The translations under genes and the position numbers were made by a program. Of a DNA stretch of 64,000 nucleotides, positions 22,379 through 25,536 are shown one piece after another (position 1 is the first letter of the stretch; each line of letters begins with the position of its first letter). The notes under the pieces were generated by a model. It did no database searches. It had not been told where the DNA came from and saw nothing but the letters and a program-made list of their open reading frames with translations. Source of the stretch: Planctomycetota bacterium (GTDB lineage: Bacteria > Planctomycetota > JAJSAM01 > JAJVHW01); NCBI GenBank assembly GCA_021776825.1, contig JAJFFG010000096.1, positions 55,876-119,875 of the forward strand, given 5' to 3'.

Positions 22379-22441
22379 CTAGCAGCCTGTCGCGTCGACG
22401 ATCTCTCGCACGGCGACGCGCACACTTCGAGAGGCTGCTAG
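22379..22441. mobile_element. 63-bp CTAG-bounded inverted-repeat element (MITE-like, family A copy 1)
   Basis: CTAGCAGCCT…AGGCTGCTAG; right CTAG contains the mutL TAG stop. Confidence 0.7.
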
Positions 22442-24225
22442 CGCTGGAAGTGGCGCCAGAGCTCGCGGAACGAGACGCGCAGCACCGTCGGCCGGCCGTG
22501 CGCACATCCGTGCGGGTTGTCGATCAGGTCGGCGCGACGCATCAGCTCCGCCGCCTGTTCCTCGGTGATCGGGTCGCCGGCCATGATCGCCGAGCGACAC
22601 GCCATGGAGTGCAGCAGCTCATCGAGCAGTTGCTCACGCGTGCCCGCGCCCTTGCCCGCCGTGATGCGCTCCGCGAGCCCGCGCACAACCGTCGCCGGGT
22701 CACGCCGGGAGAGCAGCGCTGGGAGCGCACTCACCGCGATCGCCGTCTCTCCGAACCGGTCCAAGCGGACCCCGATCCCCGCGAGGGCTTCGCGTTCCGC
22801 GAGCACCGCCTCGACGTCGGATCCAGGTAGTTCGACGACGGCCGGGACGAGCAGCGGCTGTACTTCGAGCGAGCCGTCGCGCACGCGTTCGGTCAGGGCC
22901 TCGAGCTGGATGCGCTCGTGGAGCGCGTGCTGATCGACGATCGCGATCCCGCCCTCGACCTCGAACACGAGGAAGGTGTTGCGTACCTGCAAGTAGCGGC
23001 CGGCAGCACGCGGCGCCGGAGCCGAGGAAGTTGGCGGCGGCGAGCCGCTCGAGATCGGTGTGTGCGGACGCGGTGTGGCGGCCCCGTAGAGCGTCGGTCC
23101 CGCCGGAGGGGATGCGGACGGGCCGTGGAGGAACGCCGCGAGCGCCTCCCCCACCGCCTCACGATGCGAGGTCTGCGGAGAGGTCCCCGCTGTCGATCCT
23201 GCGAGCGCATCCGGCACGATCTCAGGCGCGAGATCGGCCCCGAGAAGCGCGCTCCGGACGCCGCGCCGGACGAGCCGGTGAACCGCGTCTCCGTCTTGGA
23301 AGCGCACCTCCGTCTTCGCCGGATGCACGTTCACGTCGACGCACTCAGGGTCCATCTCGAGGAACACGAAGGCGACCGGCTGCTGACCACGCGTGAGCAA
23401 CCCCTCGTACGCATGCCGCAGCGCGTGCGCCAGACGCCGATCTCGGATCGTGCGCCCGTTGAGGTAGATCTGCATCCAAGCCGATGTCCGCCGCGCGAGC
23501 GACGGCGGCGCCACAAAGCCCTCGAGACGCAGGCCGCGCTCCTCACCCGACACCGGGAGTAGCGCCTCGAAGAGCTGCCGTCCGTAGAAGCGCGCAATGC
23601 GAGAGCGTCGGTCGTCCGAAGCGGAGACCCGAACGACGTCGCGCCCATCACGAGCGAGCGAGAACGCCACGTGCGGGTTCGCGATGGCCAGCCGATGCAG
23701 CGCCGCGGTCACGTGCGACATCTCGGTCCCAGGGGCACGCAGGAACTTGCGTCGCGCGGGCACGTAGCGGAACAGGTTGCGGACCTCGACACGCGTCCCC
23801 GGCGGCGCAGCGGCTTCCTCGACGTCGCCGATCTCGCCACCGCGACTCTCGATCGCGTGGCCGTGCGAAGCACCCTGCTCGCGCGAGACGATGCGGCAGT
23901 CCGCGACGGCCCCCATCGATGCCAGCGCCTCGCCCCGGAAGCCGAACGACGCGATGTGATCGAGATCGCCCACGTCCGCGAGTTTGCTCGTCGCGTGCGA
24001 TACGAGGGCCAGGCGGAGATCGTCCGCCCCCATCCCGATCCCGTCGTCGCGCACGACCACGAGATCGCGGCCACCGGAGCGCACCTCGACGTCGATGCGC
24101 GTGGCACCGGCATCGAGCGCGTTCTCGACGAGTTCCTTGACGATTGATGCCGGCCGCTCGACGACCTCGCCGGCGGCGATGCGATCGATCACGCGCGGCG
24201 GCAGCTTGCGAATGCGGGCAACCAT
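22438..24225 (-). CDS. mutL: DNA mismatch repair protein MutL
   Basis: IAAGEVVERPASIVKELVENALDAGAT, SFGFRGEAL, DVNVHPAKTEVRF, DQHALHER, ACRSAI, CAHGRP. Confidence 0.97.
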   Translation of the reverse strand: MVARIRKLPPRVIDRIAAGEVVERPASIVKELVENALDAGATRIDVEVRSGGRDLVVVRDDGIGMGADDLRLALVSHATSKLADVGDLDHIASFGFRGEALASMGAVADCRIVSREQGASHGHAIESRGGEIGDVEEAAAPPGTRVEVRNLFRYVPARRKFLRAPGTEMSHVTAALHRLAIANPHVAFSLARDGRDVVRVSASDDRRSRIARFYGRQLFEALLPVSGEERGLRLEGFVAPPSLARRTSAWMQIYLNGRTIRDRRLAHALRHAYEGLLTRGQQPVAFVFLEMDPECVDVNVHPAKTEVRFQDGDAVHRLVRRGVRSALLGADLAPEIVPDALAGSTAGTSPQTSHREAVGEALAAFLHGPSASPPAGPTLYGAATPRPHTPISSGSPPPTSSAPAPRAAGRYLQVRNTFLVFEVEGGIAIVDQHALHERIQLEALTERVRDGSLEVQPLLVPAVVELPGSDVEAVLAEREALAGIGVRLDRFGETAIAVSALPALLSRRDPATVVRGLAERITAGKGAGTREQLLDELLHSMACRSAIMAGDPITEEQAAELMRRADLIDNPHGCAHGRPTVLRVSFRELWRHFQR

Positions 24226-24228
24226 CGT

Positions 24229-24469
24229 CTAGCCCGGCCTATTCATGAGGCTCGCGCACCCCGTGGCGACCGTCGTCCGGCAGGTCAGGAGCCGCCTGGG
24301 TGCGGGGGCCACGGCTCGCGCGGAGAGGCCCGCCCTGAGCGAGGACTGGTCGTCGAGATCAAGGCGGGCCGACGACCGCGACGTCGTTCCGTCTCGGAGG
24401 AGGCGCAACGCGGAGATCGGCGATCTGGACCGGTCAGGTGTGTGAGTCGTCATGAATAGTCCGGGCTAG
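24229..24469. mobile_element. 241-bp MITE with 20-bp terminal inverted repeats bounded by CTAG
   Basis: CTAGCCCGGCCTATTCATGA (24229-24248) vs TCATGAATAGTCCGGGCTAG (24450-24469), 19/20 complementary; no transposase inside. Confidence 0.85.
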
Positions 24470-25536
24470 GGCAGCCGTCTCACCGCGGCCGCGAGTCGTG
24501 CCACGGCCACGCGCCCCGCGGGACCGCCGGACTTCATGCCGCGGTCGGTCTCGTCGGCGAAGACCGTCATTGCTTCGAGCGAGCGGCGTTGTCGCGAGGA
24601 GGCGGCCTTCAACGCGCTCTGCTGGGCGCTCCACGGAACGCGCCCCAACCACCGGATCTCCCGACGCGAGACGCCGGCATCGATCTGCTCGCTGGCCGTC
24701 AGCGTACGACACAGCGCGGTGACGAAGGACGAGACGAGCCGCACGGCGATGGCCGGTTCACTGCGCGTGACGCGATGACTACCGGTTCGCTCGGGGATGC
24801 CCTCGGCGAAGCACCGCTCGGACTCGATGAGCGCCCCCGTGACATCGCCCTCGACCAGCCGATCGCCGAACGCCCACACGGACCCCTCGCGCGCGCTCAG
24901 GAACAGCGCCTCGACGTCCTCACGCTCGATCGCGGACTTCTCGCCGGCGTGGATGGACAGAACCTCGACCGCGTTGGCCAGTGTCGCGAGGTCGCTTCCC
25001 AGCAGATCCACGAGCAGATCGGCCTCGCCCCGACCGAGACGCTTCTCACGCTCCGCCGCTTGCCGAGCGACGAAGCGGCTCGGGTCCTCACCGCGTTCCC
25101 CGCGACCACCGCAGCGCACCAGCACGCCGGCCTTCTCGACTCCCGCGAGCACCGTCGGCGCGAGGTCGTCCGCCAGCACGACGGCCACCGCGGCTCGCCC
25201 CGGGTTCTTGCACCACGCCAGGAACGCCCGGCGATACCGCACAAGGAGCGGGCCCGCGTGGCGGAGCGCCACGACCTTCTTCGATCCGAACAACGAGCCG
25301 GTGCGTGTCTCGTCGAAGAAGCGAGCGAGGGTGTCCTGATCCACGTCCGACGTGGTCGCCGCAGCTTGCAGCACGATCACGTCGCGACTCCCGGCGTCTC
25401 CGAGGACCGCCTCGGCAACCTGCGCGAGGACCTGCTCGCGGAGATAGCTCTCGGGGCCGACGGCGGCCACGATCGGAGGACCGACACCGTCCTTGAACGC
25501 TCCCGCCACCGCGTCGGGACGCAGTCGCGGGCTCAA
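24466..25536 (-). CDS. holA: DNA polymerase III delta subunit
   Basis: AAVGPESYLREQ, GSLFGSKKVVAL, GSDLATLANAVEVL, SVWAFGDRL pattern; TTG start inferred. Confidence 0.72.
   Translation of the reverse strand: MSPRLRPDAVAGAFKDGVGPPIVAAVGPESYLREQVLAQVAEAVLGDAGSRDVIVLQAAATTSDVDQDTLARFFDETRTGSLFGSKKVVALRHAGPLLVRYRRAFLAWCKNPGRAAVAVVLADDLAPTVLAGVEKAGVLVRCGGRGERGEDPSRFVARQAAEREKRLGRGEADLLVDLLGSDLATLANAVEVLSIHAGEKSAIEREDVEALFLSAREGSVWAFGDRLVEGDVTGALIESERCFAEGIPERTGSHRVTRSEPAIAVRLVSSFVTALCRTLTASEQIDAGVSRREIRWLGRVPWSAQQSALKAASSRQRRSLEAMTVFADETDRGMKSGGPAGRVAVARLAAAVRRLP

Follow-up and report, generated by a model that had tools for sequence, protein, structure and literature searches.

An IS1380-Type Miniature Transposon between holA and mutL in a Planctomycetota Genome

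REP sequences and REPINs are GTAG-tagged hairpins that are mobilized by RAYT transposases and are found abundantly at gene ends. Insertion sequences of the IS1380 family, as described in ISfinder, have ends that begin with CC and a direct repeat of 4-5 bp. Here we describe a 241-bp repeat that lies between holA, encoding the delta subunit of DNA polymerase III, and the mismatch repair gene mutL in a 64,000-nucleotide stretch of DNA (the window) from contig JAJFFG010000096.1 of a Planctomycetota bacterium (assembly GCA_021776825.1). The repeat is a miniature inverted-repeat transposable element, or MITE, of a family that we call MITE-A. We establish the repeat family, its ends and the CTAG slot that it occupies, its link to IS1380, the ancestrally tight junction, and the intact state of mutL and mutS. 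In our interpretation, of which we are highly confident, an IS1380-type MITE inserted at the CTAG of the holA stop codon; the insertion is old and tolerated, and both genes are intact.

IS1247, a member of the IS1380 family, is 1672 bp long, with 16/13-bp inverted repeats and a 5-bp direct repeat (PMC3281130). MITE-A shares with this family (IS1380, IS1247, ISEcp1; NF033539) the CC-initiated repeats of about 16 bp and the short target duplication, which is 4 bp in MITE-A. Unlike IS1380 elements, it lacks a transposase, is 241 bp rather than about 1.7 kb long, and has an interior unrelated to the transposase gene. As summarized in PMC3184786 and PMC10969869, Geobacter uraniireducens has a MITE, Chunjie (Chen et al. 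2008), that measures 178-235 bp and has terminal repeats of about 21 bp and very stable RNA folds. It resembles MITE-A in size, in its ~20-bp terminal repeats, and in its stable folds, and, as another MITE that sits within an operon, it is functionally analogous. However, Chunjie is A+T-rich and has 9-bp direct repeats, so it depends on another transposase family and another target.

The Correia elements of Neisseria are multicopy MITEs that are often cotranscribed with adjacent genes and can alter expression via promoters, IHF sites, or RNase III cleavage (PMC10969869). They differ from MITE-A in their TA target duplication, their length of 104-157 bp, and regulatory effects that have been shown experimentally. 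The REP and REPIN hairpins share with MITE-A an abundant, hairpin-forming character and a location at gene ends, but MITE-A differs from them in its long terminal inverted repeats, its target duplication, and its DDE-type insertion sequence ends, and it is devoid of the GTAG-tagged short palindrome. The element is a MITE with IS1380-type ends; our search of the open-access literature found no paper that attributes CTAG specificity or MITEs to the IS1380 family.

A dispersed family of CTAG-bounded elements

The 241-bp stretch upstream of mutL is a genuine transposase-less miniature transposon. It is short and noncoding, has terminal inverted repeats, belongs to a dispersed multicopy family, and duplicates its target, as seen in a comparison of filled and empty sites presented below. 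Its two 20-nt arms, located with a repeat finder at 24229-24248 (CTAGCCCGGCCTATTCATGA) and 24450-24469 (TCATGAATAGTCCGGGCTAG), are complementary at 19/20 positions (95%) and lie 201 nt apart, and the MITE-A core has CCCGG at its start and CCGGG at its end. With <=3 mismatches allowed, the arm 20-mer has two sites only in the 64-kb window and 0 matches in 100 shuffles. A first-pass annotation of this sequence had described the arms, both CTAGs, the holA TAG within the right CTAG, and a distance of 3 nt to the mutL ATG; each of these is present in the sequence, and its identification of a MITE agrees with the multiple CTAG-bounded copies and their unrelated flanks. Pfam gave no match to the two internal frames of this copy, a scan of positions 23900-24800 against Rfam (E <= 1) gave none either, and no sigma-70 promoter or intrinsic terminator was found between 24000 and 24700.

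The host genome (G000) is a 6.88-Mb assembly of 133 contigs with 69% G+C; it is 93.6% complete and breaks at repeats. Below, C numbers denote its contigs, other G numbers denote other genomes, and L numbers denote loci taken from other genomes. Using blastn, we found 37 full-length copies in G000 with 82-93% identity to the copy at mutL and about 60 further matches, mostly cut off by contig ends. Searches with the terminal repeat, a check that had been proposed alongside the MITE call, returned 130-145 ends, corresponding to about 60-70 copies. All copies are bounded by CTAG (with a few single mutations), their flanks are unrelated, and their terminal repeats are conserved. Numerous contigs stop exactly 140-141 nt inside a copy, and identical 141-mers are shared by groups of 4-5 copies, from which it appears that MITE-A breaks the assembly and has been recently active; its copies are a main cause of contig breaks in this assembly. 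The copy at mutL differs from the consensus at 18/241 positions (92.5% identity, against a family mean of 94.4%), and the nearest copy is 93% identical, suggesting that this insertion is old. Lengths are off by one or two bases in 5/37 copies.

Three other genomes from the same family of organisms contain homologous 241-bp elements with 68-78% identity. We also detected a sister family, B, in G000, consisting of about 25-30 copies of about 241 bp with ends CTAGCCCGGCCTTCTCACC (for example, C39:36293-36533, C68:57352-57590, and C78:267888-268128). The B ends resemble those of an intact IS1380 in G002 (L263:1217-3046), and the G002 homologs of MITE-A bear B-type ends, indicating that families A and B are related.

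Shorter derivatives were observed as well. Three two-ended forms of 24 bp (C86:93605-93628, CTAGCCCGGCCTGTTCCGGGCTAG), 102 bp (C124:17077-17178), and 138 bp (C107:195402-195539) may have arisen from MITE-A by internal deletion or may be footprints of its excision. Solo right-end remnants of 20-28 bp lie directly past an upstream gene's TAG and provide the following gene with its ATG (C55:12217-12244, C22:40700, and C128:42244); the 28-bp remnant at C55:12217 gives a hemY-like flavin adenine dinucleotide (FAD) oxidoreductase its ATG and first four codons (MTTH). These remnants look like the result of partial MITE deletion in which the ATG was kept as a start codon. The host genome also encodes two PSD1-domain proteins, in line with a planctomycete origin.

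Ends shared with IS1380 transposase carriers

Judged by sequence, the ends of the element belong to the IS1380 family and not to IS5 or IS1182. An exact search for the 20-nt end CTAGCCCGGNCTATTCATGA in one genome per species returned >113 stretches, and we examined 80 loci (L149-L228). The sources span at least a dozen phyla, including Planctomycetota (many), Nitrospira, Eisenbacteria, Acidobacteriota, Gammaproteobacteria, Gemmatimonadota, Armatimonadetes, Dehalococcoidia, and Myxococcota. Most of these stretches have paired ends 167-246 bp apart and represent other MITE families that share only the ends with MITE-A. Among them are MITEs of 181-185 bp with similar interiors in metagenome-assembled genomes (MAGs) labelled Nitrospira, Eisenbacteria, Acidobacteriota, Thermoanaerobaculales, Spirochaetaceae, and Gammaproteobacteria, as well as families of 167-168 bp and of 202 bp.

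A tblastn search with the L178 transposase identified a full IS1380 element in 1/80 of the cross-phylum loci, namely, L178 itself. This 1683-bp element from a Polyangia MAG (L178:306-1988) encodes a 441-aa IS1380 transposase (NF033539, 388 bits against a cutoff of 180) and has the ends CTAACCCGGATTATTCGTGA and TCATGAATAGTCCGGGCTAG; its transposase-distal end (TTCATGAATAGTCCGGGCTAG) matches the right repeat of MITE-A. In the host genome itself, C122:19040-19678 is a 639-bp IS1380 deletion derivative with CTAGCCCGGACTATTCACGA-type ends that keeps about 110 N-terminal residues of the transposase (82.8 bits, 42% identical to L178). Its transposase-distal end likewise matches the right repeat of MITE-A. 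The end formed by the left repeat is likewise present on both carriers, and overall the ends of MITE-A and those of these two carriers correspond almost base for base. Because the same 20-nt end recurs across at least a dozen phyla with full-length partners rare, it should be useful for annotating repeats in genomes from metagenomes.

IS1380 elements were also found in two relatives. G002 has one intact element, with ends like those of sister family B. G001, from the same family of organisms (5.4 Mb, 4 contigs), shows a massive expansion with 85 IS1380 matches, of which 82 are full-length and nearly identical (for example, L262:1336-3013).

The CTAG target and the operon junction

CTAG is rare in the host genome, with 2,607 occurrences observed against about 19,700 expected from base composition (about 0.13). 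About a tenth of the CTAGs are ends of IS1380-type elements (261/2,471 counted). TAG is frequently used as a stop in G000, in which the stops of long gene-like open reading frames (ORFs) comprise 1,352 TAG, 1,743 TGA, and 148 TAA.

One copy, at C24:41723, sits inside a different high-copy repeat that has >40 empty paralogs. The empty paralogs read ..GCTGCTAG-CTAT-AGGCCG.., and the filled site reads ..GCTGCTAG-CTAG[core]CTAG-AGGCCG.., so that the insertion adds 237 bp and duplicates the 4-bp, CTAG-like slot. A gene-like ORF (G+C at third codon positions above 0.8) ends on the terminal TAG in 21/37 full copies, compared to 28% of 2,210 other CTAG sites. This association with stop codons is as expected from the CTAG target together with selection against intragenic insertions.

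Eight copies, including the one at mutL, lie between codirectional genes, the second of which starts no more than about 20 nt from the element. These junctions are holA-mutL, cysD-cysN, an ABC ATPase-permease pair, two pseudopilin genes, an unidentified gene followed by kdsB, two alcohol dehydrogenases, enoyl-CoA hydratase followed by a dehydratase subunit, and a nuoF-like gene followed by mobA. Given that a CTAG target predicts such positions, the mutL site is not special.

Joining the flanks of the mutL copy through one CTAG gives ...CGG CTG CCC TAG ACG ATG GTT..., which reproduces the tight junction reconstructed in the first-pass annotation. Tight junctions are also the rule in relatives: in 9/9 genomes, drawn from the same family and order, holA is directly upstream of mutL. 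In G002, G005, and G016, the TGA of holA overlaps the mutL GTG (as GTGA), and G007 and G003 have a gap of 10-11 nt. Across these relatives, all from other genera, the junction ranges from a 4-5-nt overlap to a 38-nt gap, G006 aside, and none carries the element. In G006, a 146-nt spacer (L048, G006:C8, about 1376-1521) contains an unrelated short tandem repeat of CACATCTGCGTCACTCA-like units. The 3-nt gap of TAG ACG ATG matches the relatives' pattern, which argues that the element entered a tight operon junction.

We postulate that an IS1380-type DDE transposase acting in trans would recognize the CC-initiated 16-bp terminal repeats and that the 233-bp core would insert into the rare tetranucleotide CTAG, duplicating this target. 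With CTAG strongly depleted and between one quarter and one third of the sites that are left formed by C plus a TAG stop, surviving insertions would gather at gene ends. At this locus, the target would have been the last base of a holA proline codon plus the TAG stop, in the junction holA-TAG-ACG-ATG-mutL. Duplication would have rebuilt the holA stop and left mutL untouched, placing between the two genes a hairpin-forming spacer of 237 nt that may be untranslated or incidentally translated, and mutL would presumably be expressed by read-through from holA. The locus shows how an IS1380-type MITE with a CTAG target can insert into the tightest operon junctions, including one in front of a mismatch repair gene, and break neither gene; the target duplication rebuilds the stop codon. 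The features of the locus are collected in Table 1.

TABLE 1 Features of the holA-mutL region, in window positions
Feature	Position	Strand	Remarks
63-bp CTAG-bounded hairpin unit	22379..22441		CTAGCAGCCTGTCG...GAGAGGCTGCTAG; different, IS1182-linked repeat family
mutL	22438..24225	-	595 aa, intact, endonuclease type; ATG is the complement of 24223-24225
MITE-A copy	24229..24469	+	241 bp including both CTAGs; core 233 bp (24233-24465); net insertion 237 bp
Left CTAG	24229..24232		One target copy; 3 nt from mutL ATG
Left terminal inverted repeat core	24233..24248	+	CCCGGCCTATTCATGA; begins with CC, like IS1380-family ends
74-codon open frame spanning the MITE-A copy	24229..24453	-	Not regarded as a gene
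Right terminal inverted repeat core	24450..24465	-	Inward reading CCCGGACTATTCATGA
Right CTAG	24466..24469		Second target copy; its first three bases complement the TAG stop of holA
holA (DNA polymerase III delta subunit)	24466..25470	-	5' limit approximate; frame open back to 25932; TAG at 24466-24468

Several findings weigh against the interpretation of an old, tolerated IS1380-type insertion. The first concerns the parent. The first-pass annotation had proposed looking for a transposase gene with matching ends; one was found in full at L178 and as the 639-bp derivative in C122, but an intact IS1380 transposase with MITE-A ends was not found in the G000 assembly, in which end pairs 0.3-4 kb apart gave noise and the C122 element only. 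Since the assembly is fragmented at repeats, the missing partner is not proof of absence. The second concerns the duplication: one of 4 bp (CTAG) is indistinguishable from one of 2 bp (TA) with element ends of the form G...C, and the G001 IS1380 copies examined have flanks of CTAA...TTAG, CTAG...CTAG, or unrelated tetramers, not all of them simple direct repeats. Recombination between copies may account for these flanks.

The third concerns the empty site. Tight, element-free junctions exist in relatives from other genera, but no empty allele of this locus was found. The collections contain no genome of the same genus, and the closest genomes, from other genera, have 60-70% MutL identity; a scan of JGI metagenome contigs with MutL for a same-species empty site gave a best match of 48% identity. 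The exact MutL occurs in one other assembly (Logan SRR15505515), in which the insert is present and the contig ends within the element, 31 nt upstream of the ATG. A look-up of the exact holA protein returned no record. Finally, when neutral evolution of mutL was simulated with substitutions only to 7.5% divergence, the frame was still open in about 10% of simulations. Because length changes occur in 5/37 MITE-A copies, frameshifts would push this figure below about 10%.

Maintenance of mutL and alternative readings

The gene downstream of the element is intact. Pfam domains of MutL were detected (DNA_mis_repair, 2.5e-36; MutL_C, 6e-34; HATPase_c_3), and the N terminus MVARIRKLPPRVIDRIAAGEVVERP aligns, from residue 1-8 onward, with the MutL proteins of nine relatives, orthologs within the same family of organisms being 60-70% identical. 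The full 595-codon frame keeps all of its catalytic motifs, with DQHA..E....E, GFRGEAL, ELVENALDA, DQHALHERIQLE, ACR, and CAHGRP present, and mutS of the host genome is also intact (971 bits, no stops). The identification of holA rests on TIGR01128 (89.9 bits against a cutoff of 80, residues 158-478 of the 488-codon ORF); Pfam alone gave no match on this ORF. An insertion that is both old and tolerated implies that mutL is still expressed enough for purifying selection, and the intact motifs would add to the case for continued selection. From these sequence features we infer that mutL expression persists, probably along the read-through route from holA.

The alternative that survives best, though we consider it unlikely, is that MITE-A is compatible with operons in one orientation only: junctions would tolerate the orientation that presents the weaker-folding strand in the mRNA and an open through-frame, which would relay ribosomes to the downstream gene. 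Among copies that were assembled through, 18-19 have the right end pointing toward the stop of the incoming gene and 2 have the left end there, and all 8 tight codirectional junctions share the right-end-to-stop orientation. However, copies broken by contig ends are biased in the opposite direction (left 9, right 1), and taken together the counts (left 11, right 19) show no significant bias (chi-square p = 0.24). Clustering of the copies gave no account of the difference in orientation between assembled and broken copies. In relatives, the copies are decayed and show little association with stops, with 3/46 ends on gene stops.

The strand transcribed in the right-end-to-stop orientation folds less stably in 37/37 copies (mean of -119 compared to -140 kcal/mol, the left-to-right strand being the more stable). 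The through-frame, which at mutL starts at an ATG in the right repeat, 13 nt past the holA stop, and ends at the terminal TAG, 3 nt ahead of the mutL ATG, is open in 26/37 copies and is retained in 262-bp variants. In the cysD-cysN copy, this frame is closed by a TGA overlapping the cysN GTG, and the right-end remnant at C55:12217 provides the hemY-like gene with its start and first codons. Against a relay, substitutions show no codon periodicity (112/113/120), the opposite-strand frame is kept equally often (27/37 copies), and symmetric ends automatically give a frame across the whole element if its length equals 1 mod 3 and it is rich in G+C. If a relay did operate, mutL would now be reliant on a transposon-borne coupling module.

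Two related candidates were rejected. With no codon periodicity and no Pfam match, we do not regard the 74-codon frame as a coding gene. Covariation was detected at 13-15 pairs with double-sided changes, compared to 0-4 in slid controls, and many of these pairs fall in the terminal repeats; we did not accept it as a sign of a functional RNA, because the terminal repeats must covary for transposase recognition anyway.

Slippage can excise substrates that combine 4-bp flanking repeats with long inverted repeats. On this basis, the insert might serve as a reversible mutator switch, as the first-pass annotation speculated: it would lower or abolish mutL expression, precise excision would restore it, and the population would toggle its mutation rate. 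The element has these repeats, and it sits 3 nt from the mutL ATG in place of an ancestrally tight and probably translationally coupled junction. In the mutL-sense RNA, its arms pair in a stable predicted fold that closes beside the start codon (-135 kcal/mol, z = -4.4), and an effect of this fold on the initiation of mutL translation is conceivable. However, we regard a switch as very improbable. The copy is among the more diverged of its family, as expected if it has long been fixed, and mutL has its full frame and all catalytic motifs, alongside an intact mutS. Seven other copies occupy similar junctions in ordinary metabolic operons, so that mutL is not singled out by the position. Logan SRR15505515, the one further assembly of this locus, is also filled, no empty allele was found, and the scan of 24000-24700 found no promoter-like or terminator-like site. 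Such a switch, if true, would be relevant to adaptive control of mutation rate; we found no support for it here.

Least credible of all is the descent from an IS5 or IS1182 family element that was first suggested for this MITE: IS5 prefers YTAR/CTAG targets, the host genome has 8 DDE_Tnp_1 loci, and its IS1182-family element (C65:94668-96335) is likewise bounded by CTAG, but 0/8 of the DDE_Tnp_1 loci (PF01609) have MITE-A ends (CCCGGNCTATTCATGA), the C65 ends (CTAGCAGCCTGTCGG...) are those of a 63-bp repeat family and not of MITE-A, no match to PF13586 (IS5-type) was found in four genomes, and the matching ends sit on carriers of IS1380 transposase. We correct the family assignment from IS5/IS1182 to IS1380.

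A member of that 63-bp repeat family is found at the other end of mutL. The right CTAG of the unit holds the mutL stop, and mutL is thus bounded by CTAG elements at both ends. Units of 62-64 bp form both ends of the IS1182-family element in C65 (NF033551, 328 bits; C terminus frameshifted), and >40 solo units of this size are dispersed in G000, each with an adjacent CTATAGGCCG.. segment.

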